64,000 nt of DNA from Actinomycetota bacterium (GCA_014360655.1 JACIXC010000001.1:17173-81172); one strand, 5' to 3'; positions 25,636 through 58,150 are shown, counted from the first letter of the stretch. Notes: generated by a model not told the origin, from the letters alone. Made by a program: numbers and translations.

Positions 25636-26871
25636 CTATTCCTCGCCCACTATGGCCTCCCCGGCTACCAGTGCCAGGAAGTCGTTGGAACCGTCCTCGA
25701 TGAGGCCCGCCCGGGCGTCCCGGAAGAGCTTCTCTATGGTCGACTCCTTGGAAAGCCCGAAGCCCCCCATGAGCTGCACCGCCTCGTTGGCCACCTCGAA
25801 GGCCGCCTGGGTACAGAAGACCTTGGAGGCGATGGAGTACTGGGTGAGAGGCGGGTTGGTGTTGAAGTTGAACTCCATGACCGCGCGCGAGAAGGCGCGG
25901 CACGCCTCCACCAGCTTGAACATGTGGAAGAGCTTGTAGCGGACCAGCTGGTGCTCTATGAGCCTCTTCCCTCCCTGCACCCTCTGCTTGCAGTAGGCGA
26001 GCGCTTCCTCGTAGCAGGCCCGCGCGACGCCGGTGAAGAAGGCGCCCATGCTGGCGTTGGCCGTGGACAGGGTGACATCCAGCATGGCTTCGTAGGAGTC
26101 CTGTTCGATGAGCATGTACTCCCTGGGCACCCTCACGTTGTCGAAGTATATCTCCCCCTGGTTGAGGGCCCGCTGTCCCAGCTTGTTCCAGGGTTTCCCG
26201 CGCGAGACGCCCGGCAGGTCGAGGGGGACGATGCATATTCCTCCCCCGGCCATGCCCATCTCGGGGTCGATGGTCAGGTAAACGGTGGCGTGGGTGGCGA
26301 TGGTCCCGCAGGACACCCATGCGGCCTTGGTGCCGTTGATCACCCACTCGTCCCCGTCCAGGACGGCGCGGCAGGCGGTGCGGGCGATGTCCGGGTTGCA
26401 GAACTGCTCCGTGAAGGGGGCCAGGGTATCCGAGCCGTGGTCGGGCTCCGTGATGGCCCAGCAGCCGATCATCTTGGCCTCCTCGTCCTCGCAGTAGGGG
26501 ACGATGATGTTCTCGATGAGGAACTCCGTGGGCACCAGGCTGGCCAGGAAGGCCGGAAAGCAGGCCACCCCGAAGGCGATCATGAAGTCGATGGAGCCCC
26601 AGGATATCTCCTCGAAGAGCATGTGTACCTCGAGGGGCGAGAAGCCGCCTCCGCCGTAGATCTCGGGTATGAGTATCTTGTGCAGGCCGATCTTGTAGCC
26701 CTTGCGGAACACATCCCAGAAAACGGATTCCTTGGCGATGACGTCCTCGGGATCCAGCTTGTCCAGCTCCAGGCTGGCCGGGCGCAGCACCTCGCTCGCG
26801 AAGGTGTGCACCATGTCGCGGTTCATCTTCTGCACCTTGGTGATGTTCAGGTTCAGGTCGGTGTACGGCAT
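25636..26871 (-). CDS. Acyl-CoA dehydrogenase
   Basis: 411 aa. ACAD N/M/C domains. C-terminal RDARAGLIEDGSN carries the catalytic Glu in the IxEG position. Confidence 0.85.
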   Translation of the reverse strand: MPYTDLNLNITKVQKMNRDMVHTFASEVLRPASLELDKLDPEDVIAKESVFWDVFRKGYKIGLHKILIPEIYGGGGFSPLEVHMLFEEISWGSIDFMIAFGVACFPAFLASLVPTEFLIENIIVPYCEDEEAKMIGCWAITEPDHGSDTLAPFTEQFCNPDIARTACRAVLDGDEWVINGTKAAWVSCGTIATHATVYLTIDPEMGMAGGGICIVPLDLPGVSRGKPWNKLGQRALNQGEIYFDNVRVPREYMLIEQDSYEAMLDVTLSTANASMGAFFTGVARACYEEALAYCKQRVQGGKRLIEHQLVRYKLFHMFKLVEACRAFSRAVMEFNFNTNPPLTQYSIASKVFCTQAAFEVANEAVQLMGGFGLSKESTIEKLFRDARAGLIEDGSNDFLALVAGEAIVGEE

Positions 26872-26916
26872 GCTTACCCCCTCCCTTTCACGGCGCTCTT
26901 ACCCTTCCCTGCCTCT

Positions 26917-28527
26917 TCACAGGTAATCCTCGGCCCGGTAGACGTTTTCCGCCTGCGGCGAAAACTCCTCGCGCAGCACCCGGTCCAGGTACTTCTCCGA
27001 GGCGCTCTTGGGAATCTCTTCCACCACCTGCAGGTAACTCGGGACGGCGTTCTTCTCCAGGCCCTCGGCGGCCTTCCTGAACACGGAAGCGGGATCGATG
27101 GAGCGGCCCTCGAAGGGAGCCACCGCGGCGACCAGGTCGCTCTCCCCGGGAGCCCCGGAGGAGGCCGGTATGCCGTATACGCACACCTCGGACACGTCGG
27201 GGTGCTCCCCGATGACCTTCTCCACGTAGGAGGGGATGATGAACTCGCCCTGGCGCCGCAGCCCCCCTCCCTCCTTGCGGTAATCGAAGAAGAGCCAGCC
27301 TTCCTCGTCGCGGTGGACCATGTCGCCGGTGCGCAGCCAGCCCCCCCGCGTCTTCGCCGCAGAGTCCTCGGGTCTCCCGTGGTACTCCACCTCGGGCTTC
27401 TGAGTGACCGCCCGCATGAGCAGCTCACCGGTGACGAAGGGCGGCACCTCGTTGTCGTTCTCGTCCACGATCCTGTACTCCATGAGCCCTTCGATGGGCT
27501 TGCCGAAGGAGCCTACGGGGCCCTGGTCGATTGGCTTGTAGGCGAAGCCTCCCTCCACCGCCCCGTACCATTCCAGTATCTTCACGTTGAAGCGCTTCTC
27601 GAAGTCCTCCCAGATGGCCACGGGGGTGCCCGCGGAGATGACCACCTCCACGGGGTTGTCCGCGTCGTCCGGCCGCGGCGGCTCGTTGTAGATACCGGAC
27701 ATCATGCCCCCCAGGAGGGAAAAGGTGGTGCAACCGTAGCGCCGGCATATGTCCCAGATGCGGCTCTTGGTGAAGCGCTGGCTGATCACCGCCCGGATGC
27801 CCAGGGCCAGGGCGGACATCATGGTCACCGCCTGGGCATTGCCGTGGGTGAGGGAAAGGCCGGTGTAGAGGATGGAGTCCTCCGTGTATCCCCACACCAT
27901 CCTGGCGAGGGCGGTGTACATCAACGTGCGCGACGCCTTGATGACCACTCCCTTGGGGTTGCCGGTGACCCCCGAAGTGTAGATTATTTCCATGGGGAGG
28001 TTCGGGTCATCCACCCTGCCTTCAAGCTCGTAGATGTCCGGGCCGTCCACCAGCTCGTTCACGGTGGGATACTTCGTGGCCAAAGAAAGGTCGGCATCCG
28101 GTTTAAGGTTGAGCCAGATGCGCTCAATCCCCGGCAGGGTTCTCGCCTGCGCCTCCACCTCCGGCAACAGGTCGGCGGTGGTGATCACGGCCCTGGCCCT
28201 GCAGTCACCCAGCATGTAGGCGAGCTTCTCGCCCCGGGATCGAGGGTCTATGGGCACCGCCACGTAGCCGAGCAGGTTGGCGGCCGCCATGGCGTAGACC
28301 ATCTCAGGGTGGTTGCGCATGACCAGGGCCACGGCATCCCCCTTGCCTATGCCGCTCTCCCGCAGGCCCCTGGCCACCTTGAAGGTGTTGGCCACCAGCT
28401 GGCGGTAGGTCAGGGGCTCGTCACGGTAAAGCCCGCCGTTCTCGAAGACCAGCCCCACGAACTCGGGCTTCTCCTCCATGCGCATCTCCATCTGGTGAAA
28501 GATGAGCGCGGGGTTTTTCTCCTCCAT
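26917..28527 (-). CDS. AMP-dependent acyl-CoA synthetase (paralog A)
   Basis: 536 aa. YTSGVTGNPKGVV AMP-binding motif. About 75% aa identity to 31458-33197 with about 100-bp near-identical DNA blocks. Confidence 0.85.
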   Translation of the reverse strand: MEEKNPALIFHQMEMRMEEKPEFVGLVFENGGLYRDEPLTYRQLVANTFKVARGLRESGIGKGDAVALVMRNHPEMVYAMAAANLLGYVAVPIDPRSRGEKLAYMLGDCRARAVITTADLLPEVEAQARTLPGIERIWLNLKPDADLSLATKYPTVNELVDGPDIYELEGRVDDPNLPMEIIYTSGVTGNPKGVVIKASRTLMYTALARMVWGYTEDSILYTGLSLTHGNAQAVTMMSALALGIRAVISQRFTKSRIWDICRRYGCTTFSLLGGMMSGIYNEPPRPDDADNPVEVVISAGTPVAIWEDFEKRFNVKILEWYGAVEGGFAYKPIDQGPVGSFGKPIEGLMEYRIVDENDNEVPPFVTGELLMRAVTQKPEVEYHGRPEDSAAKTRGGWLRTGDMVHRDEEGWLFFDYRKEGGGLRRQGEFIIPSYVEKVIGEHPDVSEVCVYGIPASSGAPGESDLVAAVAPFEGRSIDPASVFRKAAEGLEKNAVPSYLQVVEEIPKSASEKYLDRVLREEFSPQAENVYRAEDYL

Positions 28528-28618
28528 CGCTGCGTCCCTCCTCTAAGCCCTGCCTCCTGCGCCAGCAGGCATCTCGCCCGCGGCGGCATGTCCAGCCTGT
28601 CTCGAACGCCGTTTACCC

Positions 28619-29269
28619 TCACTCAACCGCACCCATGAAACGACGGGTGAAGGAGGGGAACTCCCTGGCGAATATCTCCGCCCATTCCTCCTCCGTCCAG
28701 TACTTGTGACGGTCGAAGAAGGGGTCCCGCGGCTGGTAACTGACCGCCACCCCGATGCAGAAGTCCACGTCCTCTATGAACTCGCAGGCGGGCGCGGCGG
28801 CGCCTATGGTCTGGAAGACGCGGCAGTGCAGCCCCAGGCGCCAGGCCATGGCCGCCGCGGCGTTTGCCGCCATGTGCACGTCGTAGACAACGAAGTGGCA
28901 GCACGGGCCGTTTATGATAGACTCTACTTCATCCGCCTTGTTCAGCTCCTCGCAGGTGCGAAAACCGCAGGCCCCGCAGTCGAAGTTGTAGACGGATTTT
29001 CTCCTCGCCCCTATCAGCAGCGCACGGGCATCCTCCTTGGCCAAGTCCAGAAAGCTCCTGCCGTCCCGGTTGAAGAGGGGCGAGACCTCCGCCACGCCTT
29101 CGCAATATCCCGACAAGTCCTCGAATTCCTCCGGTCCTATGGCCGCCATCCTGATCCTGGGATGCCCGAATTTCAGGGCCGTGGAAGCCGCAACCGCCAT
29201 GAGCTCCACCGCCCGGTCGAGACCACCGCCCAAGAGCTCCTCAGCTTTTTTGACCGCCATGGCACGCAC
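28619..29269 (-). CDS. Cys-rich protein, DUF2148/COG4739-like ferredoxin-domain protein (tentative)
   Basis: 216 aa. DCGACGFRTC and GPCCHF motifs. Paralog of the adjacent gene. Confidence 0.45.
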   Translation of the reverse strand: MRAMAVKKAEELLGGGLDRAVELMAVAASTALKFGHPRIRMAAIGPEEFEDLSGYCEGVAEVSPLFNRDGRSFLDLAKEDARALLIGARRKSVYNFDCGACGFRTCEELNKADEVESIINGPCCHFVVYDVHMAANAAAAMAWRLGLHCRVFQTIGAAAPACEFIEDVDFCIGVAVSYQPRDPFFDRHKYWTEEEWAEIFAREFPSFTRRFMGAVE

Positions 29270-29273
29270 CCCC

Positions 29274-29933
29274 TCAACAGTAGATGGAACGGAAGGTGGG
29301 AAAGAGCCGGTGGATAAGCCTGTTGGAAAGGGTCGCGTCGTTGAACTCGTCCCAGCGGCGCGGCAGGTCGCGGTAGGGGCTCTTCTCCGTCACCGAGGCG
29401 AGGAAGCCCAGGGCGATGCCGCACCCGTGCGGGACCAGCCCCGTGCGCACCGCGGCCGCCCCCACCGACATCTTCACGGCATGATCGATGCCCAACTGCC
29501 GGGCCAGCGAAACCGCCCCGTTGAGCGCATAGGCCATGTTCATGGAGCGCAGCAGGCAGAAGGGCCCGCGAAAGGCCACCGAGGGCTCATCCGGGAGACG
29601 TTCCGCATCCCGCCAGTTGTCGCACAGGATGTTGCCGCACAGGTTGCAGTTGGAATCCATTGGATCGTGCCCGGCGCGCCTGTCGGCCATGATGAGGACG
29701 ACATCGGAGTCGCGCACCTGGACGGCATCGGAGCGGAAGAAATCCCAGCGGGGGTTGTCCGCCGCCATGCGCTCGACGGCGATCGCCAGGTCCTCGATGG
29801 CGTCCCGGTCGTCGAGGGCCACCACGCAGATCTCGTCTATGCCCCCCACGCGGGGGGAGGTGACGGCGGAAGCGAGGAGGAGCTTGCAGGCTTCCCTGGC
29901 GCTTTCCGCCCGCCTTTCCTCGTATTCCCTCAT
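29274..29933 (-). CDS. Cys-rich protein, paralog of 28619-29269 (DUF2148-like, tentative)
   Basis: 219 aa from ATG 29933 (SD GGAAAGGA 5 nt upstream). NCNLCGNILC and GPFCLL motifs in positions equivalent to the neighbour. Confidence 0.45.
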   Translation of the reverse strand: MREYEERRAESAREACKLLLASAVTSPRVGGIDEICVVALDDRDAIEDLAIAVERMAADNPRWDFFRSDAVQVRDSDVVLIMADRRAGHDPMDSNCNLCGNILCDNWRDAERLPDEPSVAFRGPFCLLRSMNMAYALNGAVSLARQLGIDHAVKMSVGAAAVRTGLVPHGCGIALGFLASVTEKSPYRDLPRRWDEFNDATLSNRLIHRLFPTFRSIYC

Positions 29934-30051
29934 TATCCTTTCCACGGAACATCCCTCCCTTGCAAGAATGCGCCTATACGAGCGGGAAAAACACGTCACG
30001 GAAAAAAGCGGCCCGGCCGTGACCGCGAGCGGCGGCGGCCGCGTGCGCCCG

Positions 30052-30453
30052 TCAGGTGGGCAGCCCCTTTTCCTCGCAGATCTTGGGATAGGCCTCGTAG
30101 GCTGGCTTGAGCAAGGGGAGCATGCCGAGGATCTTGCTCATGGGACCCTTGGCCTTCACCTTGCGCTTGGCCAAGGCCACGGGCAGCTTGAGCTTCTGCA
30201 GCCAGAAGTTGTGGCAGTCATCTCCGGCAAGCCACATGACCACGTCCGGCTCCGCCTCCGTCTCCCCCAGGGAGAGGGATGGCTTCTCGTCGCCGTGCAG
30301 CAGCCAGATCTCCCCGTCCGGATCGTTGATCACGAACTGCACGTTGATGTTCTCCTCGTTGAATTTCCTCGACACCGTCTCGTCCTCGAGCAGCTTGGTG
30401 AAAAGCTCGCCCAGGACCTCGTACATGTGAGCGGTATCCTTGAAGACAGCCAT
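30052..30453 (-). CDS. SCP2 sterol-carrier-like lipid-binding protein
   Basis: 133 aa from ATG 30453 (MAVFKDTAHMYEVLGELFTKL...). SCP2 fold sequence pattern. The maximal ORF N-terminus was discarded. Confidence 0.7.
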   Translation of the reverse strand: MAVFKDTAHMYEVLGELFTKLLEDETVSRKFNEENINVQFVINDPDGEIWLLHGDEKPSLSLGETEAEPDVVMWLAGDDCHNFWLQKLKLPVALAKRKVKAKGPMSKILGMLPLLKPAYEAYPKICEEKGLPT

Positions 30454-30629
30454 CGCGCACACCCCTTTCCCTCTCCTGCTAAACCGGTTGCCGGACATGC
30501 CGATACATACCAGAGTATGATACCATGGTATGTGATTGTCAAGGTCGCGCCGGAAAGCCCGGAGCGGCACAGGGAACAAAGGCGGCTGCCGTGCCGAAGG
30601 AGCCGCAAGCGTGACCGACGAGGTGCATC

Positions 30630-31301
30630 GTGCCCGAAAAGGCTCGCCTTTCGCGGAGGGAAAGAGGCTTGGCGACGAAGAAGGAGCTCTTCGAAGCCGC
30701 CATCTCGCTCTTCGCCAGGAAGGGCTACGACAAGGTCACCGTGGACGAGATCTGCGAGAAGGTGGGGGTGACCAAGGGCGCCTTCTACCACCACTACCGC
30801 TCCAAGGACCAGATCATCCTGGAGGAGTTCAAGCAGATGGACGAGCACTACGCGCGCGTGGCCGAGGAGATCTCCTCCCTCCCCGGCACCGTGGAAAAGC
30901 TCCGGGCCTTCAACCGCGCGGCCATCACCCTCATGGCGGAGCTGGGGGTGACCCTGATGAAGGTCCTCTACCACTCCCAGATCGCCCCCCACATGAGGAA
31001 ACCCTACCTCGCCGACGGCCGCCGCTCTCTCTACCGCATCACCGGCGAGCTCATCAGGGAGGGGCAGGAAAGGGGCGAGATCCGCGACGACCTGCCGAGC
31101 GAGGAACTGGCGGCGATGCTCATCGACTGTTTCCGCGGGCAGATCTACCACTGGTGCCTTTGCAACGGCGCCTTCGATCTCGTGGGCACCTGCGAGAGGC
31201 TCATGGACCTTCTCGTCGACAGCCTGAAGCCCCCGCAAAGCGCGCGCCAGCGCGGCGATTCCGGCAAGCTCCCCGGGCGGCGCCCTTCCCGACCCGCGTG
31301 A
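30630..31301 (+). CDS. TetR/AcrR-family transcriptional regulator
   Basis: 223 aa. N-terminal HTH RKGYDKVTVDEICEKVGVTKGAFYHHYRSKDQI. Confidence 0.85.
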   Translation: MPEKARLSRRERGLATKKELFEAAISLFARKGYDKVTVDEICEKVGVTKGAFYHHYRSKDQIILEEFKQMDEHYARVAEEISSLPGTVEKLRAFNRAAITLMAELGVTLMKVLYHSQIAPHMRKPYLADGRRSLYRITGELIREGQERGEIRDDLPSEELAAMLIDCFRGQIYHWCLCNGAFDLVGTCERLMDLLVDSLKPPQSARQRGDSGKLPGRRPSRPA

Positions 31302-31457: not shown

Positions 31458-33197
31458 TCAGGCGTAATCCTCCAGGCGGTAGACGTTTTCCGCGTCGGGA
31501 CGGAAAGCCTCGCGCAGGAGGCGGTCCAGGTGCTTCTCCGAGGGGCTCTTGGGAATATCTTCCACAACCTGCAGGTAACTGGGCACGGAGTTACGCTCCA
31601 GGCCGGCCAGGGCCGCCTTGAAGACGGAATCCGGGTCTATACTGCGGCCTTCGAAGGGGACCACCGCCGCCACCAGGTCACTCTCGCCCGGTGCGCCAGA
31701 GGCCGCCGGGATGCCGTAGACGCACACCTCTGAGACGTCGGGGTGTTCCCCGATGACCTTCTCCACCAGGTCGGGCTTGATGAAGTCGCCGGCCCGCCGC
31801 AGCGCTCCTCCCTTGCGGTAGTCGAAGAAGAACCACCCCTCCTCGTCACGGTGCACCATGTCCCCGGAGCGCAGCCAGCCGCCCCGCATCTTCTCCGCCG
31901 AGGCCTCCGGTTTCTTGTAGTAATCCACCTTGCTCTGCGTGAGCATGCGGCAGATGAGCTCGCCGGTCACGCCGGGAGGCACTTCGTTGTCCTCCTCGTC
32001 CACCACTTTCATCTCCACCAGCCCGGGAAGGGGCTTTCCGAAGGACCCTATTGGGCCCTTGCCGATGGGCCGGTAGGCGAAACCGCCCTCGATGGCCGCG
32101 TACCACTCGAGGATCTGGACGCCGAAGCGCCGCTCGAAATCCTCCCATATGGCCCGCGGGGTTCCCGCCGATACCACCATGCGTACCGGGTTGTCGGCGT
32201 CGTCCGGGCGCGGCGGCTCGTTGTAGATCCCGGACATCATGCCCCCCAGGAGGGAGAAGGTGGTGCATCCGTAGCGGCGGCACACATCCCATATGCGGCT
32301 CTTGGTGAAGCGCTGGCCTATCACCGCCGGGATGCCCATGGCCAGCGACGGGAAGAGGGTGACCGCCTGGGCGTTCCCGTGCGCCAGGGAAAGCCCGGTG
32401 TAGGGGATGTCGTCCTCCCGGTAGCCCCAGACTATGTACCCGAGCAGGCAGTACATGGCGTTGCGGCGCGAGTCCAGTGTGACCCCCTTGGGGTTGCCCG
32501 TCACCCCGGAGGTGTAGATGATCTGCACCGGGGCGGAGGGGTCACCGGCCGCCCCCTCCGGCTCCCGCGGCGGGTTCCCCTCCAGCATCTCGTTGAGCGT
32601 GGGGTAACGCGAGGCGAGGGAGGGGTCGGCATCCGGCTTCAGGTTCAGGTAGATCTTCGGCGAGGCCGAGACGCTCCTCGCCGCCGCCTCCACCTCCGGC
32701 AGGAGGTCAGCGGTGGTGACCACGGCCCTGGCGTCGGAGTCCGCCAGCTGGTAGGCGAGCTTCTCTCCCCTGGCGCGGGGGTCGATGGGCACCAGCACCG
32801 TGCCCAGCAGGCTGCAGGCGGCCAGCGCGTAGACGAACTCGGGGTGGTTGCGCATGACCAGGGCCAGTTTGTCCCCCTTCTCGAACCCCTCGCGCCGCAG
32901 CCCCTCCGCCAGACGCAGGGACCGGGAGTAGAGCTGCGCGTAGGTCAGCCTCTCGTCCTCGTAGAGACCTCCGTTCTCGAAGATGAGCCCGGTGCGGTTG
33001 GGGCTCTCCTCGGCGCGTTGCGCGAGGAGCCCGGAAAGCAGCCCCCTGTGCCGGGGCAGCCTGGTTTCCGCCACCCCGCGCACGGCGCGGGAGACCAGGT
33101 CGACGTGGGCCAGGAACTTGAGCGCCATGTATAGCCTGGGATTTTTTTCCTCCAGCTTTTTCAGGGCCGGCTTATCGAAGATCTTATCCAGATCCAT
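31458..33197 (-). CDS. AMP-dependent acyl-CoA synthetase (paralog B)
   Basis: 579 aa. YTSGVTGNPKGVT motif. Shares long identical peptide runs with paralog A (IYNEPPRPDDADNPV, KVIGEHPDVSEVCVYGIPA.SGAPGESDLVAAV). Confidence 0.85.
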   Translation of the reverse strand: MDLDKIFDKPALKKLEEKNPRLYMALKFLAHVDLVSRAVRGVAETRLPRHRGLLSGLLAQRAEESPNRTGLIFENGGLYEDERLTYAQLYSRSLRLAEGLRREGFEKGDKLALVMRNHPEFVYALAACSLLGTVLVPIDPRARGEKLAYQLADSDARAVVTTADLLPEVEAAARSVSASPKIYLNLKPDADPSLASRYPTLNEMLEGNPPREPEGAAGDPSAPVQIIYTSGVTGNPKGVTLDSRRNAMYCLLGYIVWGYREDDIPYTGLSLAHGNAQAVTLFPSLAMGIPAVIGQRFTKSRIWDVCRRYGCTTFSLLGGMMSGIYNEPPRPDDADNPVRMVVSAGTPRAIWEDFERRFGVQILEWYAAIEGGFAYRPIGKGPIGSFGKPLPGLVEMKVVDEEDNEVPPGVTGELICRMLTQSKVDYYKKPEASAEKMRGGWLRSGDMVHRDEEGWFFFDYRKGGALRRAGDFIKPDLVEKVIGEHPDVSEVCVYGIPAASGAPGESDLVAAVVPFEGRSIDPDSVFKAALAGLERNSVPSYLQVVEDIPKSPSEKHLDRLLREAFRPDAENVYRLEDYA

Positions 33198-33242: not shown

Positions 33243-34238
33243 TCAGGGCATCTCCTGCCAGGTCTTTCCCCCCTTGCGCCAGATGATGCGGGGCAGCTCG
33301 CGCTTGACCATGGTGTCGGCGTTCACCCGCGGGTAGCCCATGACCAGGGCCGTCACCGGGACGTAGGGCCACTTTATCCCCAGGTACCGCTTCACCCAGG
33401 GGAGCATCTTGGCTCCCACGGCCGCGAAGCTTAGGTAACAGGTGACCAGGCCCAGGGAGTGCGCGGCCAGTACCATGTTCTGGCCGCAGATCCCGATATC
33501 GACGTACATGTTGTTGATGCCCCGCTTGTCCCCCAGCAGATACACCAGGCAGGGAGCCCCCAGGAAGACGTCACGGGGCTTGAGGATGGCCTTCCCCCCC
33601 GTCATGGCCCTCTGGTCCATCAGGGGCGGGACGACGGCCGAGGAAAGGGCGAGGGCCCCCCTCAGGAGGACGTTGCGCTTCCCGGCGAAGTAGAAGGCGG
33701 TCAGGAAGCGGTAAAAGGGGTCCATCATGTCCGCGATCCTGTCCATCTCCTCGCGGTCGTTGACGATGATGAAGCTCCAGGGCTGGCAGTTGCCGTGGGA
33801 GGGCGCGAAGCGCCCCGCCTCCACAACGCGTCGCACTAACTCGTCGGGCACCGGTTTGCTGGAGAATATGCGGTTGCTGCGGCGCTTGTAGATGACCTCC
33901 TCCACAGGGGTCAGCCCCTGGATGCCCTCCACCTCCGGCACGCGGGGATAGCCGTCGTCGGGATGGAGGTGCAGAGTCCGGAAGAGGCCCTCCTCCACGT
34001 TGTAGAAGCCGCGCATGGAAACGGCGTCCTTCTCGCAGTGGGACACGCATGCCGAGCAGGACATGCAGACGACTCCCTCGATCATCCTCGCCTTTCCGCC
34101 CACCACCTCCAGGCAGGCGCACGGGCAGGCCTGCACGCAGTTTCCGCATCCCGTGCACCTCTCCTCGTCCACGACAATGGTGGAGTTGGACCAGGCTTCC
34201 GGATGGGCCGGCAGGTAAGTCTTGCTGAATTTTCCCAT
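33243..34238 (-). CDS. 4Fe-4S ferredoxin-nitroreductase fusion protein
   Basis: 331 aa. N-terminal CTGCGNCVQACP / CMSCSACVSHC ferredoxin motifs. C-terminal nitroreductase-family fold (RRSNRIFS..., HGNCQPWSFIIV). Confidence 0.75.
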   Translation of the reverse strand: MGKFSKTYLPAHPEAWSNSTIVVDEERCTGCGNCVQACPCACLEVVGGKARMIEGVVCMSCSACVSHCEKDAVSMRGFYNVEEGLFRTLHLHPDDGYPRVPEVEGIQGLTPVEEVIYKRRSNRIFSSKPVPDELVRRVVEAGRFAPSHGNCQPWSFIIVNDREEMDRIADMMDPFYRFLTAFYFAGKRNVLLRGALALSSAVVPPLMDQRAMTGGKAILKPRDVFLGAPCLVYLLGDKRGINNMYVDIGICGQNMVLAAHSLGLVTCYLSFAAVGAKMLPWVKRYLGIKWPYVPVTALVMGYPRVNADTMVKRELPRIIWRKGGKTWQEMP

Positions 34239-34283: not shown

Positions 34284-35306
34284 TCAGCTTTCGACCCTCT
34301 CTTGCTTTTTCTCCACGTCGCCTTCCCCGCGCACCTCGACGGTCATCAGTATCTCCCCGCATGCCCCCAGGGGAAGGCCCGCGCCGTAACAGTTCATGGG
34401 AAGGTCGAAGAGCGCGCCGCGGAAATCCTCCTCGCCGTCGACCGCGGCGGCCATGCGGTCGAGGACCAGCATCACCCGCCACCAGATCTTGGCAAGGGCC
34501 ATGATGCAGGCGCCCTCCCCCTTGCCGCTCGCTAGGACCCTTCCCAGGGCATCCAGGTGGAATTCGTCGCCCTCCCCGTGGCCGGCCGGGCAGGCGTGCG
34601 CGGAGACCACCTTGACCACGATGCGGCGGTCCTTGTACTTTTCCGCGGCAAGCAGGCGCCGCACGCGCTTCGGTGATGCCAGGAAGGCCGCGAGCTCCTC
34701 CTCCCCGAGGGGCAATCCCCTCATGAACGCGTCCGGCTCGGGTCCCCCGGAAAGCGGCGCCTCCCTCACCGCCCGGCACTCCCCCCGCGCCCTGCGGTTC
34801 CTAACGAGAAGGTAGGGGGCCATGGTGAGCAGGAAGTACAGGATCTCCGGCAGGGGCATCTTCTCCCGCCGTATCCTGAAGAGGTTGTTCCCCAGGCCTC
34901 CCATCTCCAGGCCGGTATCCGTGCAGGTCACGTGGTCGAAGAGCATGCCGTTGGGGTCCTTCCCCCGCAGCATGTAGTCGTAGTAGGCGTAGATGACCGG
35001 GGAGAGCTGGGAAAGTCCGTGTATGCAGATGCCGGGCGGGCACCTGTGCCTGATGAGCATGCCCATGGGGTTGAAATAGAGCGGCCGCCCCTCGTTGTGG
35101 CATCCCGAGCAGTGGTTGGAGCACACCGGCTCCGCCACCAGCCAGTAGGTCATGGCCTCAACGTTCAGCGCCTCCAGCAGCCCCAGCCGCGACGCCTGTG
35201 CGAATTCCTCCTCCGTGTAGCCCCAGCGGTTCATGATGACCCTCTTGAGGACGGGCCTGGAGGCCCAGTTGAGAAAACCCCACACGCCTCGCATCGGCTT
35301 GTCCAT
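34284..35306 (-). CDS. Hypothetical Cys/His-rich protein (two putative metal-binding clusters)
   Basis: 341 aa from ATG 35306. CSNHCSGCH ... HRCPPGICIHG cluster and C-terminal HACPAGHGEGDEFH ... NCYGAGLPLGACGE cluster. The upstream 250 codons of the maximal ORF overlap the thiolase gene and are rejected. Confidence 0.5.
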   Translation of the reverse strand: MDKPMRGVWGFLNWASRPVLKRVIMNRWGYTEEEFAQASRLGLLEALNVEAMTYWLVAEPVCSNHCSGCHNEGRPLYFNPMGMLIRHRCPPGICIHGLSQLSPVIYAYYDYMLRGKDPNGMLFDHVTCTDTGLEMGGLGNNLFRIRREKMPLPEILYFLLTMAPYLLVRNRRARGECRAVREAPLSGGPEPDAFMRGLPLGEEELAAFLASPKRVRRLLAAEKYKDRRIVVKVVSAHACPAGHGEGDEFHLDALGRVLASGKGEGACIMALAKIWWRVMLVLDRMAAAVDGEEDFRGALFDLPMNCYGAGLPLGACGEILMTVEVRGEGDVEKKQERVES

Positions 35307-35524: not shown

Positions 35525-36787
35525 TCAGGTCGCGACCTTTTCCAGTATATGGATGCACATGGCCGCTTCCCCGGTGCCGATGAAGCCGCCCCCGTTCTCG
35601 GAAAGGGCGATGCGAGCGCCCTCCACCTGGCGCCTTCCCGCCTCGCCGCGCAGCTGGGTCACCAGCTCGTGGATCTGGGCGATGCCGGATGCCCCTATGG
35701 GGTGTCCCCTGCACTCGAGGCCGCCGCTCGTGTTCACCGGAAGCTTTCCCCCCAGCCTGGTGGCGCCGGACTCCGCGAAGGGCCCTCCTTCCCCTTCCCC
35801 GCAGAAACCGAGCTCCTCCGTCTGCAGCAGTTCCCCGAAGGCGGTGGCGTCGTGCACCTCGGCCACGTCGACGTCCCCGGGGCCTACCCCGGCCACCTCG
35901 TAGGCCTTGGCGCTCAGCCTCTTCCCTATGAGGTCCATCTCCCCTCCCTCCGGCAGGGTCCCCGAGGTGAGCACGGAGGCCAGTATCTTCACCGGCCGGG
36001 CGCCGGGATAACGACGCAGTGCCCGCCCGGAGCAGAGAAGGGCGGCGGAGGCCCCGTCCCCCATGGGAGCGCACATGGCCCGCGTGAGCGGGTAGGCCAC
36101 CGGCCTGTCCGCGAGCACCTCTTCCACGCTCATGTCCACCTGGTACTGTGCCAGGGGGTTCAGCGAGGCATGGTAATGGTTCTTGGCGGCGATCACCGCG
36201 AGCTGGCGTTGTGTTGTGCCATATTTTTCCATATGCATGCGGGCGGCCATGGCGTAGATGTCCATGAAGGGCGAGCGCCCTCCCCCGCCTCCCCCGGACT
36301 TGGCCTCCCCCTTGGCCGACGCCTCCTCAGCCTTCCTGCGCTCGTCCGCCTGGAAGGCCTCGATGATGGCCCGTATGAATTCCACGTCCGCGTTGGACAT
36401 GAACATCTCGAACATGGCCTGCTTGTTCTCCGGGTTGTACATCTTCTCCACCCCCAGGGCCAGGGCCACGTCGTACTGGCCGGCCTTTATGCCCAGGTAA
36501 GCGCCGTGCAGGGCGCTGGTGGCCCCCGCGCAGGCGTTCTCCACGTTCATCACCGGTATCCCCTGGATGCCCAGCGGGGTAAGGGCCACCTGTCCCCGGA
36601 TGCTGTGCTGCCCCGTCACGATCCCCCAGAAGGAATTGGAGAACCAGGCGGCCTCGATCTCCTCCCTGCGCACCGGACAATCCCGCAAAAGGGCCTCCAG
36701 GACCTCGGCGGTCATCTGCTTGATGCTCTTTTCGGGGTACTTCCCGAAGCGGATCATTCCCACGCCGATGATGTAAACCTCATCCAT
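35525..36787 (-). CDS. SCPx-type (nonspecific lipid-transfer protein) thiolase
   Basis: 420 aa from ATG 36787 (SD AAGGAGG). N-terminal active-site Cys region (NACAGA), C-terminal GHPIGASG thiolase signature. Confidence 0.85.
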   Translation of the reverse strand: MDEVYIIGVGMIRFGKYPEKSIKQMTAEVLEALLRDCPVRREEIEAAWFSNSFWGIVTGQHSIRGQVALTPLGIQGIPVMNVENACAGATSALHGAYLGIKAGQYDVALALGVEKMYNPENKQAMFEMFMSNADVEFIRAIIEAFQADERRKAEEASAKGEAKSGGGGGGRSPFMDIYAMAARMHMEKYGTTQRQLAVIAAKNHYHASLNPLAQYQVDMSVEEVLADRPVAYPLTRAMCAPMGDGASAALLCSGRALRRYPGARPVKILASVLTSGTLPEGGEMDLIGKRLSAKAYEVAGVGPGDVDVAEVHDATAFGELLQTEELGFCGEGEGGPFAESGATRLGGKLPVNTSGGLECRGHPIGASGIAQIHELVTQLRGEAGRRQVEGARIALSENGGGFIGTGEAAMCIHILEKVAT

Positions 36788-36990
36788 CCCTGCCTCCTTG
36801 CAAAACCACGACACTTACCACGTCACCACCGCACCGGGCATCGGGGGCGGACAAGATCATGTTAAGCGCAACGGGGCGCGCGTCTCAAGGGCAAGGGCCA
36901 AGGGCAAGGGCCTCCCGGACCTCGGCGGCATGCCGTTTCTCACCCGCGACGCGCCGCTCTCGCCGAGCCATTTGCGCCTTCCCCTTCCCG

Positions 36991-38043
36991 TCAACCTTCG
37001 GAGAGGGCGAGCATGCGCAACAGTACCTCCTGCGGGGTGCGGGGGTACACCTGGCAGTACTTGGCATCGCGCATCAGGCGCTCCATGCCGTAATCGCGCA
37101 TGTACCCGTAACCCCCGTGTACCTGCACCCCGTCGGTGGCGGCCTGGAAGGCCCCCTGCGTGGCGCGAAGCCAAGCGGTCATGGCGGGGATCATCTCCCG
37201 GCTCTCGCAGGCGCGACGCACCAGCGTCCTGCCCTCCTCCACCACGGCCACCATCCCCGCCAGGAGGAGGCGTATCCCCTGGTGCTGGATGATCGTCTTT
37301 CCCGCCTGGTACCTCTCGCAGGCATAGGCGTGGGCCTTGTCCAGCGCCTTGCGCGCGATGCCCACCCCGATGGAGGCCAGGCCCACGTGGAGCAGCCTCT
37401 CCACGGCTTCCACCATACCCGCGCCCGTGACGGCATTGGCCGGGGATACGCCCTCGAGGCGCAAGGCCCCCGGACGCGCGGGCCGCAGCCCCAGCGGATA
37501 GGCCTCCGGCGTCACCCGCAAGCCTTCCGCCTCCCTGCCCAGGGCGAGGGCCGTGTCGTGGCCCTCCCCCCGCACCAGAACGACTATGGCCCCTTCCGCG
37601 GCGGCGTTCAGGGCGAAGGGCACGCTTCCGTTCACCCTGTCTCCCGCCATGGAGACCTCCCCGGGAAAGGCCAGGCACGCGGGGAAGGATGCGCCGCCGA
37701 TCCCGGTGATGAGCCCCTGCAGCTCGCCCAGCGCCGTCGGGTAAAGGGCGGCGTTATGGGCAAGGAGCGAGGCCGCCAGGCCGGCGCACTCCACGGCGAT
37801 CTCCTCCAGCGCCACGCAGAAGGCGTACTCGTCAAGCCCCCCTCCCCCCGCGTCCTCGGGGAGCAGCGCCGCGAAAAGGCCCAGGTCCCCGGCGCGGAGA
37901 AAGGCCTCGCGCACCCGCGGGGAGCCGGGTTCGAGGTCCGCCTCTTCCGCCAGGGGTGCCAGTTCCTTTGCCGCGTAGGAGGCGGCGGTCTCGCGCAGGA
38001 TCCCGTACTCCTGCTTCTCTTCCATGCCGGCAAGCCTCACCAT
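36991..38043 (-). CDS. Acyl-CoA dehydrogenase-like subunit lacking the canonical catalytic Glu (putative non-catalytic partner)
   Basis: 350 aa. ACAD fold throughout, but the catalytic-base region reads RDAKYCQVYPRTPQEV instead of RDARI..IYEGT. Start codon is 1 nt after the stop of the upstream ACAD. Confidence 0.65.
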   Translation of the reverse strand: MVRLAGMEEKQEYGILRETAASYAAKELAPLAEEADLEPGSPRVREAFLRAGDLGLFAALLPEDAGGGGLDEYAFCVALEEIAVECAGLAASLLAHNAALYPTALGELQGLITGIGGASFPACLAFPGEVSMAGDRVNGSVPFALNAAAEGAIVVLVRGEGHDTALALGREAEGLRVTPEAYPLGLRPARPGALRLEGVSPANAVTGAGMVEAVERLLHVGLASIGVGIARKALDKAHAYACERYQAGKTIIQHQGIRLLLAGMVAVVEEGRTLVRRACESREMIPAMTAWLRATQGAFQAATDGVQVHGGYGYMRDYGMERLMRDAKYCQVYPRTPQEVLLRMLALSEG

Positions 38044-38044
38044 A

Positions 38045-39520
38045 TCACCTCACCCCCTTCTTGAAGGGGCGCGGCACTTCCACCTTCAGCGACCCCTCCA
38101 CTTCCGTGTTGAAGACCACCAGGCGGTTGAGCTGGTTGGTCCCCTCGTAGATCTGGGTCAGCTTCGCGTCGCGCAGGGACTTTTCCACCCAGCGGCGGTG
38201 CGGGGTATCGTCCAGCCCCATGACCTCCAGCGCCCGCGAGATGATCTCCATGGCGTTGTCCGCGCAGCGGAACTTGGCCAGGGAAGCCTTGGCCAGGAGG
38301 TCCGTGACCTCCTCGTCCCCTATGAAATGGCGGAATAGGGTGTTCACAACCCCCTTGCCGTAATAGGAGTTGTAGAAGGCCGCCATGGGCTTCGCGGTGC
38401 GCAGGGCGCGCGGCATGCTGAAGGCCGCCTGGAAGACGGGATGGGTGAAGGCGCTGCGGAAGACGGCATCCCCCAGCAGGGCGTGGTTGAGGTACAGGCC
38501 CCGGTTCTCCTGGATCATGGCCAGCATGTCCGCCAGGGTCATGCGCACGCGGTCCTCGTCCGCGGGACGTTTGCCGTTACGCCTTTCCAGCGCCCAGGCC
38601 CGGAAGTGCTCGAAGGCCCCCCGGGCGATGCCCGTGGCTATGGCCCCCACGGGACCACGCGAGGAGGCCATGATGATGAGAATGCCGTTGGCCATGCCGT
38701 CGCCGGGATAGCCGAGCACGTGGGAATCGGGGACGAAAACGTCCTCGAAGAGCAACTCCGCCGCGTGGCAGGCGCGCTGTCCCATCTTCAGCTCCACGCG
38801 AGGTGTGGAAAATCCTTCCATGCCCCTCTCCACCAGGAAGGTGGTCCATGTTTCAAGGGGCCGGCTGCGGTCGATCGCCGCGCACACCGTTATGTACTTG
38901 GCCTCGCTGCCGCCGGATATGAAGCACTTGCGGCCGTTGAGGATGTAGCCTCCTTTCACCCTCCTGGCCTCCAGGCTGAGGCGGGCCACCTCCAGGAACT
39001 CCGGTTCCTCCACGTCGGTTCCCGCCGAAGGCTCGGTGATGGCATAGGCCATGACCACCGGGTTGCCCTTCTTCTCCTCCTCCGCTATCTCGTGCAGGAC
39101 GGTGTCCCAGTGGGCCAGGGCCCCGGAGGCGATCACCGGGGAGACCCCCAGGCTGTGGGCCCCTATGGCCAGCCCGATACCCCCGCAGCAGGAGCACAGC
39201 TCCTCCACCACCAGGGACATGCCGGAAACCAGGTACTCCTTGGCCAGCCCTCCCACCACCTCGGGGATGATCAGGGAGAAGAAACGGTACTTGCAGGCCT
39301 CCCGCATCATCTCCCAGTCGAAGTACTCCGGCTCGCGCTCCATGCGCTCGTCCAGGGCGAGGGCCCTCGGCTCCGCCACCGCGCGGTTATATTCCACGGC
39401 CCTCTCCACCAGCTCGATCAGCCAGTCGATCCCCTTGCGGTCATGCTCGCGCAGGGCGGCCAGGACGGGGAAATCGGTCAGCACCCTCTTTCCCACTTCG
39501 CTCACTCCGCGTCCTCTCAT
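38045..39520 (-). CDS. Acyl-CoA dehydrogenase (catalytic subunit)
   Basis: 491 aa from ATG 39520 (SD GGAGAGGGGGG). C-terminal LTQIYEGTNQLNRLVV carries the catalytic Glu. Confidence 0.8.
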   Translation of the reverse strand: MRGRGVSEVGKRVLTDFPVLAALREHDRKGIDWLIELVERAVEYNRAVAEPRALALDERMEREPEYFDWEMMREACKYRFFSLIIPEVVGGLAKEYLVSGMSLVVEELCSCCGGIGLAIGAHSLGVSPVIASGALAHWDTVLHEIAEEEKKGNPVVMAYAITEPSAGTDVEEPEFLEVARLSLEARRVKGGYILNGRKCFISGGSEAKYITVCAAIDRSRPLETWTTFLVERGMEGFSTPRVELKMGQRACHAAELLFEDVFVPDSHVLGYPGDGMANGILIIMASSRGPVGAIATGIARGAFEHFRAWALERRNGKRPADEDRVRMTLADMLAMIQENRGLYLNHALLGDAVFRSAFTHPVFQAAFSMPRALRTAKPMAAFYNSYYGKGVVNTLFRHFIGDEEVTDLLAKASLAKFRCADNAMEIISRALEVMGLDDTPHRRWVEKSLRDAKLTQIYEGTNQLNRLVVFNTEVEGSLKVEVPRPFKKGVR

Positions 39521-40346
39521 GATCCCCCCTCTCCGTAGACACCAAGAACCGTTCTCCCCTCCGCCGAAAAGCATGCGAAAACCTCCTCGCACCGCGTCAG
39601 GCCGGTGCAGTTCCCATGCTTTTCCTACTCCCCGCCGCTTCCGCCGGAATCGCAGCCCTTCACGTTCCCCGGGGTGGGCCGGCCCGGCCAGCCGGCGACC
39701 CCGCCCACACGCATACAAAAGGAACGCAACTGTACATACGTATAATACAATAAATCCTTTCACTGCAAAGACGGCGGTGGATTCTTCCCCTTGTAAAAAG
39801 AATCTCCCGTCATCAGGCCACCTGCCTCGCGCACGGGACGGGAACCCAGCGCTTGAAGCGAACTTGCGATCTCATCGACGTCGGGGGCTCCGGAGGCCGG
39901 CCGCTCCCCGGCGAGTTGCCGGTGCACTGTCCCGCACCGCCGGGCCGTTGTCTTTCGGCGCGCGTTCACTCCCGCAAGTCAAACCCACAGCCGCCTCCCT
40001 TGGGCGCATGCATGCCCGCGCACCCTGTCGAACGGTAGCTCTTGGTCAACGGTGACTTTAAACCGCCGGTGGAAAAATCCGATAGAATAGTAAGTGTCAG
40101 TTGCTGCGGCCGCCCGGGAAGGCCCGACAACACCGCGAAGGACGGGAGGCGGGGGGTGCCGCTTGCGCGGGGAGGACCAGGCAAGGGGGCATGTGCTCCC
40201 GGTAAGCATGGGAAGTCGATGTTTTTCAGTAATCCGCTTCCTTGGCATGGCGGAACGCCAAACGGGAAGGGGTGAAAGAATGCCCTGTCAGCACGGCCTC
40301 GCATGCCGCACCCAGGTGGCATTACGGAGTAAGAGAGTGAGGTATC

Positions 40347-46598: not shown

Positions 46599-48197
46599 TT
46601 AGCGCGCACGGATCATCCTCGCCGCCCCGAGGGAAGCAAGCAAGGCTCCCGCCGCGAACAACGATCCCATCATGATGAAGAGGTAGACTACGTCGAAGCC
46701 GGTGGCCGGCAGGGTCTGCTCCGCTCCCACCTGCACCTGCGGCTCCACCGGCGGCGTCACCACCTCTCCTCCCACCGGCACCCGGTTGAAGAAGTCCACC
46801 TTCTTTTTCTGCCCGGGAAGGAGGTCGAAGGTCACGGCCGTGGGCGCGGTGGCCTCGTAGCCGAAGGGAACGATCTCCTGCACGGTGTAACGGCCGGGCT
46901 TGAGGCCGCCGAAGGAATAAGCGCCACCGGCGGCGCTTTTCGTGCTGGCGACCGGCAGGCCGTCCGCGTCAAGGAGCTGGATGGTAACTTCATCCAAGCC
47001 GCTTTCTCCCTCGTCCGCCGTGCCGTTGCCGTTGGCATCCAGCCACTTGGTGCCCGCGATGGATGCGGGAAGAACTTCCTCCTGCTTGACCTCGATGTCC
47101 ACCTCCACCTCGTCCTCCAGCTCACCGATCCTGGCCTTGTTGTTCAGGGTGTAGGTCCCCGCGGCCTCGGCGGTGAGTTCCTTGGTAATGAGCAGGGTGT
47201 AGGGAGCGGTGGCCAGGTCAAGCGACCAGGGCCCGGTCAGGGATGCCGCCGGGGCTCCGTTGACGGTCACGGACTTGATCTCGTATCCCAGCCCCGTGGG
47301 CGGGTCCACGCTCTCGATGTCCTCCAGGGTAACCACCTGCGGTCCGCCCGCCGCCGGCTTGTCGAAATCCTGCCGGCTGTGGAAGGTCCAAGTCTGCATG
47401 CCCGGCTTGGGCGGATCGGGCTTGTTGCTGATGGTGATCTCGATGAGGTTGCTCATGGAGCTGACGCTGGAGAGCGCCACCGGCAGGGTGAAGGTTCCCT
47501 CGTAGGAATAGACGTGCGGCCCACCTGTAGGTATGGCGTTGTCTCCCAGGGGGACGGTGGTGGTGATGCTCGAGGGGGCGGCAATCCAGCTCGGACCTCC
47601 GGCCTTGTACTCCACGGTGTCCGAGACGGCGGTCACGTCCGCCGGCCAGTCGCCCTTGTTCTGTACGAAGATGTTGCCGGTGATGTGATAGGTATCCGGG
47701 CTCAGGCCGGCCGTCACCTCTATGGTGAAGGTGATCTCCTTCTTCTCGCCCACGGTCATCTCCAGGTAGTCCTCGGAAGCCGTCTTTTCCAGTCCTATCT
47801 CCGGGTCCACGGCCTCCACCAGGTCCACGTCCTTCCAGACGTCCAGGCTGGTGACCTCCCAGGGGTCAGGACCGTTCTCGATGGAGAGGGCAGCGGCCTT
47901 GAGATCAGAGGAAGGCGCCTGTTCCGCCTCCCCATCTTCCCCCGCTTCCGCCGCCGCGGCTTCCCCCGCGTAAGGCGTTTCCGCGGACGTTGCCTCCAAC
48001 CCCGGAGACTCGTCCTCCGCCTCTTCTCCTATTCCCGATTCCTCGCCGCGCTCTCCGGTGGACTGGACGATATCGCCCTTACCCGATGCCGCAACAGGCA
48101 TAAAGGGAGAGGCGAGGAAAAAGAGGAGCGCCGAGGCCAAGAGAATAATCGCTGATCTTCTCAACATCTCGTTCATTTTGTTCACTCCTTTCGCCAT
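46599..48197 (-). CDS. LPXTG-anchored cell-surface protein with SdrD-B/Cna-B-like domain
   Basis: 532 aa. Signal peptide. Acidic Glu/Ala-rich spacer. Cna-B-like GTKWLDANGNGTADEGESGLDEVTIQLLDADG...GRYTV. C-terminal LPATG + hydrophobic helix + ARMIRAR sorting signal. Confidence 0.8.
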   Translation of the reverse strand: MAKGVNKMNEMLRRSAIILLASALLFFLASPFMPVAASGKGDIVQSTGERGEESGIGEEAEDESPGLEATSAETPYAGEAAAAEAGEDGEAEQAPSSDLKAAALSIENGPDPWEVTSLDVWKDVDLVEAVDPEIGLEKTASEDYLEMTVGEKKEITFTIEVTAGLSPDTYHITGNIFVQNKGDWPADVTAVSDTVEYKAGGPSWIAAPSSITTTVPLGDNAIPTGGPHVYSYEGTFTLPVALSSVSSMSNLIEITISNKPDPPKPGMQTWTFHSRQDFDKPAAGGPQVVTLEDIESVDPPTGLGYEIKSVTVNGAPAASLTGPWSLDLATAPYTLLITKELTAEAAGTYTLNNKARIGELEDEVEVDIEVKQEEVLPASIAGTKWLDANGNGTADEGESGLDEVTIQLLDADGLPVASTKSAAGGAYSFGGLKPGRYTVQEIVPFGYEATAPTAVTFDLLPGQKKKVDFFNRVPVGGEVVTPPVEPQVQVGAEQTLPATGFDVVYLFIMMGSLFAAGALLASLGAARMIRAR

Positions 48198-48317
48198 ACA
48201 AGAAACCGACCTCTATGTGAAGAGGCCGGTTTCACTGTTAGCTCCCGGCGGCTCCCGAGTGACCAAACTACAAGCCGCCTTTCAAAGCTTCCTCTTGCTC
48301 TTTAGATAATTCTAACA

Positions 48318-49784: not shown

Positions 49785-49842
49785 CCCCCGAGATGCCGCG
49801 GGCCGCCGCCCGTCATGTCATTCTTCCCATATATTTCCATGT

Positions 49843-51147: not shown

Positions 51148-51300
51148 GTTTCCCTCCCTTCAGCCGGTCAGCTTCTACGCACGCGTGCCGCGAGCCGTAC
51201 CGCCGCGTTTCTCCGGCGTACGCTCCCTCTCCTGCACCCCGCAGGGCGTTTCCTTCCCACCGCGCATCTCCCTCCGGCGAGACGCTGCCCGGCTCCCTCC

Positions 51301-55500: not shown

Positions 55501-55660
55501 GGGCTTTCACTCCTTCCTCGCCTCTTCTTCCTCGCCGCTCGCCGGCTTTGCCTCATGCCTGAGTATACCCCATCTGCGCACCTTCCACGGAAGGGTTGAC
55601 CCCCCGCGCCCTGGGGACTATCTTAAGGGCATGGTTATGTTAAGTGGAGATTAATACATC

Positions 55661-56833: not shown

Positions 56834-56836
56834 GGC

Positions 56837-57705: not shown

Positions 57706-57763
57706 GTACCTCCCTCCTTTTTGCTTTCCGCCGAGCGACGCGAAGCAAGGAAATTCTAACACC

Positions 57764-57945: not shown

Positions 57946-58150
57946 ACACCTATCGAAACGTGCGGCATGGCGCAAAGCTCGCTCCCTGCAAGAGCGCCGT
58001 GCGGAATGCGTCACGGCGGGTTATGCGATGTTCTTCTTCCTGCGCGTAAGAAAAGGCGCTTGCCCGAGCCGGCGGGCGGCGACTTCGCGCCTCCTCCCTG
58101 GTCCGGGCAAGAACCGTTGGCAAGGCCTGTCAGGTCCCGGAGGGAACGGC

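Follow-up and report, generated by a model that had tools for sequence, protein, structure and literature searches.

On the minus strand of a 64,000-nt stretch of DNA from an Actinomycetota bacterium (GCA_014360655.1 JACIXC010000001.1:17173-81172), called the window below, we found two adjacent genes that we read as the subunits of one heteromeric acyl-CoA dehydrogenase (ACAD). The large chain (alpha, 491 aa, 38045-39520) carries the catalytic Glu and the small chain (beta, 350 aa, 36991-38043) has Pro in its place. We put the probability of this reading, including the operon role proposed for the pair, at about 0.72. An initial annotation of this DNA had described a catalytic/non-catalytic pair with one active site, on the logic of FadE26-27 and FadE28-29, within an igr/steroid-type module. 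The conserved motifs, the Pro and the linkage of the two genes support the pair with one active site. The steroid label was not supported: similarity to steroid ACADs is weak, and no steroid context genes turned up among the scanned open reading frames of the window.

In ACADs, the Thr of the TEP motif, the Ser of the GSD loop and the Thr or Ser of a W/F-I-T motif hold the flavin ring of the flavin adenine dinucleotide (FAD) cofactor (T136, S142 and T168 in MCAD). In homotetrameric ACADs, an Arg/Gln motif and a GGxG motif bind the adenosine diphosphate (ADP) part of the FAD of the neighbouring subunit (R281, Q349 and G353 in MCAD). To describe conservation in alpha we used 116 sequences and a 42-sequence alignment (A2). 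The motif QIYEGTN (Q456-I457-Y458-E459-G460-T461-N462) is invariant in A2 and conserved in the 116 homologues, and the canonical IYEGT Glu reported in the initial annotation is thereby confirmed as Glu459 (codon 38144-38146), the predicted catalytic base. Also invariant in A2 and conserved in the larger set are T162-E163-P164, G167-T168-D169, K198 and F200-I201-S202. The TEPSAGTD loop (39014-39037), the predicted flavin-ring and substrate site, is retained. The sites that would bind the FAD of a partner are degraded in alpha, which reads ERRN-GKRPADED for ERxQFGKPIxxxQ and ALEVMGLDDT for QxxGGYGY, and both stretches vary within the alpha family.

Translation of alpha from the ATG at 39520 gives the 491 aa, and we take this to be the true start because the homologues are also 491 aa long and begin in the same way at the N terminus. 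Pfam matched the ACAD N, M and C domains in this protein, which includes KLTQIYEGTNQLNR, and the C-domain match is in two pieces. The AlphaFold (AF2) model of alpha has a predicted local distance difference test (pLDDT) score of 91.8. Its ACAD core gives template-modelling (TM) scores of 0.85-0.91 when normalised to targets of ~380 residues and ~0.7 when normalised to the query. The model has extra N-terminal helices (residues 8-24) and a helical insertion at residues ~345-400 (helices 361-399; 38321-38488). This insertion of ~55 aa in the C-terminal domain is also seen in the split C-domain match and the alignment, and has no counterpart in solved ACADs.

The small subunit shows the opposite pattern. 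Conservation in beta was assessed with 87 close sequences (group A), a 27-sequence alignment (A1) and 119 distant sequences from the protein search (group B). Beta contains QVYPRT, and a HMMER alignment to solved ACADs puts Pro334 (codon 37042-37044) on the catalytic Glu of IYEGT, in agreement with the YPRT noted initially at this position. Pro334 is invariant in 87/87 group-A and 119/119 group-B homologues, as is C330; Q331 is nearly invariant. Two independent alignments showed that beta has neither the GSD loop nor the canonical TEP Thr, and that GSVPFALN stands where (W/F)-I-(T/S) would supply a Thr or Ser. The residues that would bind the FAD of a partner are kept. Both sets show no variation at Arg244 and Gln246 of ERYQAGK (37297-37317) or at Q307 and G310-G311-x-G313-Y314 of QVHGGYGY (37102-37125), a motif predicted to bind the ADP portion of alpha's FAD; H254 is invariant in close relatives and present in 115/119 of group B. 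Pfam matched only the ACAD N and C domains in beta, which includes RDAKYCQVYPRTPQE. AlphaFold nevertheless predicts a full three-domain ACAD fold (pLDDT 89.5) with SCAD/MCAD-type enzymes as the best structural neighbours (TM 0.85-0.89); model confidence is low only at residues ~101-120, the site of the missing flavin loop. A look-up of the exact beta sequence found no record.

At the level of sequence motifs, conservation and loss in alpha and beta are complementary, and therefore each chain retains exactly what the other has lost. A comparable division has been described for steroid-degrading enzymes. The alpha subunit of ChsE4-ChsE5 provides the flavin-ring site, the Glu and the substrate site and the beta subunit binds the ADP-ribose (PMC11153573, PMC8399759); the crystal structure of ChsE1-ChsE2 is described there in the same terms. 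Such heterodimers are reported to have Glu in one subunit only, one FAD at the interface and two active sites per tetramer (PMC8399759). The pair in the window likewise has the catalytic Glu in one subunit only, with E459 invariant in alpha and Pro334 invariant in 206 beta homologues. A heteromeric enzyme with a single active site is well supported by these motifs.

The two genes are also tightly linked. As the initial annotation stated, beta begins 1 nt after alpha ends: the alpha TGA is at 38047-38045, a single T is at 38044 and the beta ATG is at 38043, giving a TGA-T-ATG junction (38043-38047). A Shine-Dalgarno-like run, GGGGGTGAGG, sits within the final alpha codons ahead of the beta ATG. 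Protein searches returned ~90 beta homologues of 340-366 aa, with scores falling from 165 to 132 bits at the step to ordinary ACADs of 380-390 aa, and more than 120 alpha homologues of ~490 aa. The pair was present in each of four contexts reached through one or the other subunit (L001, L002, L004 and L005). We also searched with a back-translated DNA pattern (RDAKYCQx[YF]P), which yielded 85 metagenomic stretches, and ran hidden Markov models (HMMs) of both families on all of their open reading frames (ORFs). Of the 53 loci with enough upstream DNA, 52 have alpha immediately before beta in the same orientation, with junctions of -4 to +3 nt; the single exception has only ~390 nt of upstream sequence. 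Junctions measure 0-3 nt in one group of close relatives, some of which have ATGA overlaps instead, and in the distant subfamily nearly all loci have the 4-nt ATGA overlap. The pattern search is biased to Pro, and L004 and L005, which were reached through alpha, also carry Pro. We consider the observation to be beyond chance because Pro is fixed in both homologue groups and the tight junction recurs in all these loci but one.

This linkage spans two subfamilies (about 35-45% identity) and three gene contexts. In the first, found in the window and at least 11 loci, the pair is followed by the thiolase, sometimes a TIGR04076-like protein, a ferredoxin-nitroreductase (Fer4-nitroreductase) protein and a ligase; in a variant, a ligase precedes the pair and the Fer4-nitroreductase and a ligase follow it. 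In the second, usual in the distant subfamily and found in some close relatives, an acetoacetate-decarboxylase-family gene (PF06314), in some cases with a TetR gene before it, precedes the pair, which may be followed by an SDR gene and a TetR gene. The third, represented by L002, has the pair followed by esterase and TetR genes. No steroid context is among these, and we therefore read the pair as a portable unit of two genes that serves several small acid-degradation-type operons. On Solirubrobacterales-type contigs (many of L090-L166, and L004 and L005), the PF06314 gene almost always precedes the pair, an SDR gene often follows and TetR genes flank it; the PF06314-pair-SDR-TetR set is a conserved module of four to five genes. 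L004 comes from an assembly labelled as a Nitrososphaerota archaeon (GCA_050258325.1), and its contig has genes for sigma-70, a YkuD L,D-transpeptidase and peptidoglycan-binding proteins. The contig is probably bacterial and mis-binned.

The close relatives that carry names are from metagenome-assembled genomes (MAGs) of Actinomycetota (Candidatus Solincola, Anoxymicrobiaceae and Ca. Geothermincolia), and for the distant subfamily the names come from Solirubrobacterales MAGs; taxonomy within the family is given at species level by source names only. The class Ca. Geothermincolia has been inferred to consist of anaerobic homoacetogens (PMC10989778). The host of the window is an uncultured actinobacterium, probably an anaerobe.

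From these features we propose the following mechanism. Alpha and beta would form a heterodimer that holds a single FAD and a single active site, and two such dimers would probably assemble as alpha2-beta2. The middle domain of alpha (TEPxAGTD, KxFIS) would hold the flavin ring, alpha would also carry the acyl-CoA pocket, and Glu459 would be the catalytic base. Beta would be a pseudo-enzyme whose Arg/Gln and QxHGGYGY residues clamp the ADP part of the alpha FAD across the dimer interface. Neither subunit is expected to form a working homo-oligomer, because alpha has lost the partner-FAD motifs that beta supplies. The 1-nt junction and the Shine-Dalgarno-like run may couple translation of the two genes and favour production at a 1:1 ratio. 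The pair would catalyse the first step of a beta-oxidation-like operon for a carboxylic acid: the ligase would activate the acid, the alpha-beta enzyme would desaturate it, and the thiolase would cleave the product once enzymes from other loci had hydrated and oxidised it.

The other genes of the row were delimited with ORFs filtered by third-position GC, a filter chosen because the G+C content of the window is 62-69%. Downstream of beta, after a gap of ~200 nt, is the gene for a predicted SCPx/SCP2-type thiolase (35525-36787, minus strand). It is annotated as 35525-36814 with a GTG start; an ATG at 36787 follows AAGGAGG and is probably the true start. It is followed on the same strand by a gene for a Cys-rich protein (34284-35306), a variable operon member with no Pfam match and a partial TIGR04076-like region, a gene for a 2x[4Fe-4S] ferredoxin domain fused to a nitroreductase-family flavoprotein (33243-34238; Pfam), and a gene for an acyl-CoA ligase that forms adenosine monophosphate (AMP) (31458-33197; Pfam). 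A divergent TetR-family regulator gene lies on the plus strand (30630-31301; Pfam), and in many loci the module has TetR genes beside it. Approximately 220 nt upstream of alpha, a sigma-70-like promoter match (39742-39769, minus strand; consensus match only) lies in an AT-rich patch. This patch (39700-39770, minus strand) has the promoter-like TTTGCA-16-TATTAT and a partly palindromic sequence, TGTATTATACGTATGTACA, and is a possible TetR operator. An Rfam scan found no RNA element within or adjoining the operon.

Several observations weigh against the heteromeric reading. One locus (L006) has an alpha gene without an adjacent beta gene, and another (L159, 1045-5151) has two tandem alpha genes (825 and 833 bits) before a single beta gene. 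Beta has a Glu (Glu215) three residues before the helix-G base position that is kept in 79/87 close relatives. This residue would face the vestigial beta pocket and is Leu, Pro or Arg in group B; therefore it is not a family-wide catalytic residue and we regard it as a minor caveat. Group-B small subunits have Glu right after the Pro (FPEP), and for this group only, a one-residue alignment shift at the catalytic column cannot be formally excluded; the beta in the window has Arg there. Genes for a hydratase and a hydroxyacyl-CoA dehydrogenase are not in the operon, and the reading assigns no role to the ferredoxin-nitroreductase and Cys-rich proteins. The motifs, their conservation and the gene linkage were observed directly, whereas the physical association of the chains, the FAD stoichiometry, the catalytic direction and the class of substrate are deduced from them.

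The catalytic direction bears on an alternative in which the alpha-beta enzyme acts as an enoyl-CoA reductase in an anaerobe, receiving electrons from the ferredoxin-nitroreductase flavoprotein instead of passing them out through an electron-transfer flavoprotein (ETF). The relatives in lineages inferred to be anaerobic acetogens fit this idea, as do at least 10 loci in which a Fer4-nitroreductase gene accompanies the pair. The window showed no ETF genes, and the family-specific surface insertion in alpha could be a docking site. The best partial NCBIfam matches also point this way, being acryloyl-CoA reductase (AcrC) and cyclohexanecarboxyl-CoA dehydrogenase (107-161 bits). However, neither subunit reaches any NCBIfam cut-off, and the AcrC and cyclohexanecarboxyl matches fall well short of theirs and express the likeness common to ACADs. 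The acetoacetate-decarboxylase-type and esterase-type contexts have no Fer4-nitroreductase gene, a thiolase and a ligase fit degradation and synthesis equally, and an ETF may lie outside the 64 kb of genome that is visible. On balance we consider a reductase unlikely.

The steroid interpretation takes the pair for a genuine ACAD of steroid or bile-acid side chains (ChsE/IpdE/Scd type) in an igr-like module with thiolase, SCP2 and MaoC genes. The architecture does follow the logic of ChsE4-ChsE5, and a thiolase that resembles the SCPx type adjoins the pair, as the initial annotation noted. The SCP2 domain (30052-30735) and MaoC hot-dog genes (55072-55506 and a two-gene pair at 56837-57700, 17-19 kb away) that it mentioned are indeed present, and the window also encodes an MMPL/sterol-sensing-domain transporter. 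In sequence, both subunits resemble SCAD/MCAD-type enzymes far more than ChsE, IpdE or Tcur3481. The match of beta to the IpdE2 model (45 bits), a weak point in favour of the steroid view, compares with a cut-off of 450 and with 107-124 bits for generic ACAD models. In the PDB it matches Tcur3481 at 32 bits, compared with 112 bits for the generic ACAD 4m9a, and ChsE4-ChsE5 was absent from the best 60 PDB matches of either subunit. No DUF35, cyp125-like P450, KstD, Ksh, Hsa or Mce4 gene was found among the ~57 Pfam-scanned ORFs of the window or in the L001 and L002 contexts. A ChsH1-ChsH2-type MaoC hydratase with DUF35 is likewise missing from the operon; the nearest hot-dog pair, 19 kb distant, encodes proteins of ~140 aa without DUF35. 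In other genomes the neighbours of the pair are acetoacetate-decarboxylase-like and SDR genes or an esterase gene, and the closest named lineage, Ca. Geothermincolia, is the inferred homoacetogen. Taken together, these data make a steroid enzyme very improbable.

The thiolase leads to the same view. It resembles the SCPx type, with a Thiolase_C_1 domain and SCP2-thiolase type-1 as the best PDB match (215 bits), followed by BbsB (197 bits) and an archaeal acetoacetyl-CoA thiolase (195 bits); the Ltp2 aldolase (6ok1) gave only 72 bits. The nucleophile Cys is kept in NACAG, aligned with the nucleophile of SCP2-thiolase, and the HDCF motif reads HDAT, without the second Cys. Together with the distant MaoC pair, this leaves the Ltp2/ChsH organisation proposed initially without support. 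NCBIfam scores of the thiolase are below all cut-offs. A BbsB role was rejected, since the score of 220 bits compares with a cut-off of 750 and neither BbsA nor DUF35 was present. The protein carries a Gly-rich low-complexity insert, AKSGGGGGGRSP.

With regard to substrate, the initial annotation had suggested a bulky, branched or steroid-like lipid. The steroid-like part is not supported; a bulky or branched substrate is possible, but no finding points there. A Pro at the start of helix E marks bulky-substrate ACADs (P132 in LCAD, P89 in ChsE4; PMC11153573). Alpha has none and reads CCGGIG in an alignment made by eye, on which we do not rely.

It could also be argued that the genes encode two independent homomeric ACADs, beta being IVD/LCAD-like with its base on helix G. 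The initial annotation had named a beta of this kind, with a full set of FAD-binding residues, as the opposing case. In IVD and LCAD the base is the residue directly before a conserved helix-G Arg (PMC11153573). A joint alignment of canonical ACADs and those of the window puts Leu218 of beta (codon 37390-37392) at this position, with Leu218-His219 where IVD/LCAD-type enzymes have Glu and then the Arg. Position 218 is Leu, Val or Met in 83/87 close homologues (L73, V6, M4) and Leu, Val, Ile or Met in 119/119 of group B. The window does encode a genuine IVD-like ACAD (55655-56833, ELQGERL and IGGGT), so the type exists in this genome, and its Glu aligns with Leu218 of beta. Although Glu215 is largely kept in close relatives, it is not at the exact position. 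The flavin-ring Thr/Ser residues and the GSD loop are gone from beta, alpha is without the motifs for binding a neighbour's FAD, and adjacency is near-obligate, all of which make two separate homomers highly improbable.

Beta is probably not a relic either. Compared with a 96%-identical metagenomic copy, the ratio of nonsynonymous to synonymous substitution rates (dN/dS) is 0.22 for beta and 0.12 for the 3' part of alpha. The third-position GC of beta (0.88) is like that of real genes of the window. The dN/dS values indicate purifying selection on both genes, and a pseudogene was rejected on conservation and dN/dS. Another idea is that beta is a duplicate in decay, or that it is a pseudo-enzyme whose function (regulatory or acyl-CoA-binding, for example) has nothing to do with alpha. 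Its lost catalytic and own-flavin residues, its poorly conserved middle domain and its lower identity to nearest relatives (62% vs 78% for alpha) might suggest this. The idea is hardly credible, however: across more than 200 sequences there is next to no change in the last 45 residues or around ERYQAG, conservation falls on precisely the positions that bind FAD in trans, and the coupled junction is kept.

As a comparison, we considered characterised ACADs alongside the heteromeric enzyme proposed here. The steroid alpha2-beta2 enzymes (ChsE4-ChsE5 = FadE26-27, ChsE1-ChsE2 = FadE28-29, IpdE1-IpdE2, Tcur3481-3483 and Scd1AB) are alike in having adjacent genes, Glu in one subunit and flavin-ring and ADP sites split between chains (PMC11153573, PMC8399759), a split that for the window pair is read from sequence motifs. 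By contrast, the window pair is not close to them in sequence (32-45 bits) and is far more asymmetric in size (491 vs 350 aa). Its alpha has the N-terminal extension and the helical insertion, and its beta is shorter by ~30 residues around the TEP/GSD loop and has Pro for Glu. It also lacks a steroid context and comes from an uncultured, probably anaerobic lineage. The closest enzymes to both subunits by sequence and fold are homotetrameric SCAD/MCAD-type ACADs (4m9a, 1ukw and 7p98, a cyclohex-1-ene-1-carboxyl-CoA dehydrogenase), which differ in carrying the catalytic and FAD motifs in one chain, whereas the window pair splits them over two. PimC/PimD pimeloyl-CoA dehydrogenase is also a two-subunit ACAD (large and small), from an anaerobic dicarboxylate pathway; this identity was rejected, as TIGR03203 and TIGR03204 match neither subunit at E <= 0.001.

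Two further systems were compared. FadE23 and FadE24 of M. tuberculosis, at 468 and 401 aa, differ in size from the 491 and 350 aa seen here. They form a heteromeric ACAD pair outside the cholesterol regulon, with an activity reported as unclear (PMC11980559, citing Wipperman 2013); therefore the architecture is not restricted to steroids, and this in itself is not new. In the fused double-ACADs CasC and FadE34, catalysis falls to one module and the second serves FAD binding alone (PMC8399759). The window pair differs in that its modules are separate polypeptides with a coupled junction.

The new elements are a strongly asymmetric family (491 + 350 aa, with Pro for Glu, an insertion in alpha and a deletion in beta), its wide occurrence among uncultured Actinomycetota and its non-steroid contexts. 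From the score gaps we infer that the pair belongs to a separate, uncharacterised family of independent origin. Heteromeric ACADs with a helper subunit are usually seen as a hallmark and marker of bacterial steroid catabolism. This locus and roughly 200 related pairs suggest a like division of labour in an unrelated ACAD lineage. If this is correct, an adjacent ACAD pair in which one member is without Glu would not be evidence of sterol degradation in metagenomes, and the alpha-beta solution would have arisen or spread beyond the characterised examples. The compact conserved operon would also be a starting point for tracing what an uncharacterised pathway, in a lineage without cultured members, acts on and where its electrons go. 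The mechanism itself is not surprising, and the value of the finding lies in this starting point and in caution about ACAD pairs as steroid markers.

Helper-type subunits may extend further. Among the best 150 cluster representatives in an exhaustive beta-profile search, aligned with hmmalign, the catalytic column was Glu in 29, Pro in 52 and unaligned in 44. Many of these non-Glu representatives keep ERYQGG and QxxGGYGY. The beta-profile matches (hits P0361-P0501) also include double-ACAD fusions of 740-790 aa (P0373, P0378, P0380, P0383, P0396 and P0408). These results suggest that helper-type ACAD subunits are common and largely unannotated. A bolder proposal is that independently evolved asymmetric alpha-beta ACADs are widespread in deep-branching Actinomycetota (Geothermincolia and Thermoleophilia), that the alpha insertion docks the ferredoxin-nitroreductase instead of ETF for ETF-independent, ferredoxin-linked acyl-CoA dehydrogenation or enoyl-CoA reduction, and that helper subunits are a large unrecognised class; we hold this as a doubtful conjecture.

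Six ACAD-family genes were seen in the 64-kb window. A second pair of adjacent ACAD genes, at 48486-51159 (minus strand), shows the same kind of complementary pattern and is not close to the ChsE structures. Its alpha-like member (49843-51159) has AMTEPSGG, keeps the catalytic Glu within LWEGG and shows weakening of the partner motifs (DHKLAG and GMYGAER). Its beta-like member (48486-49817) has AVHEEP and Asp for Glu in LLDAV, and keeps ERLAAGKPIRQH and GSYGY. The IVD/LCAD-type ACAD at 55655-56833, with its base on helix G and IGGGT at the usual site, is part of a region (55072-58020) where it is flanked by the single MaoC gene at 55072-55506 and by the hot-dog pair, the members of which are hydratase-2 N-like (57262-~57700) and MaoC (56837-~57260, GDFNPIH). 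A lipid-type cluster at 25636-30735 (minus strand) encodes an ACAD (IEDGS), an AMP-ligase, two DUF2148 ferredoxin-domain proteins and the SCP2-domain protein. Outside the lipid genes, a c-di-GMP-II-GAG riboswitch (48215-48301, minus strand; 49 bits, above the gathering score) lies directly upstream of a gene for an SdrD_B/SpaA-like surface protein (46599-48197).

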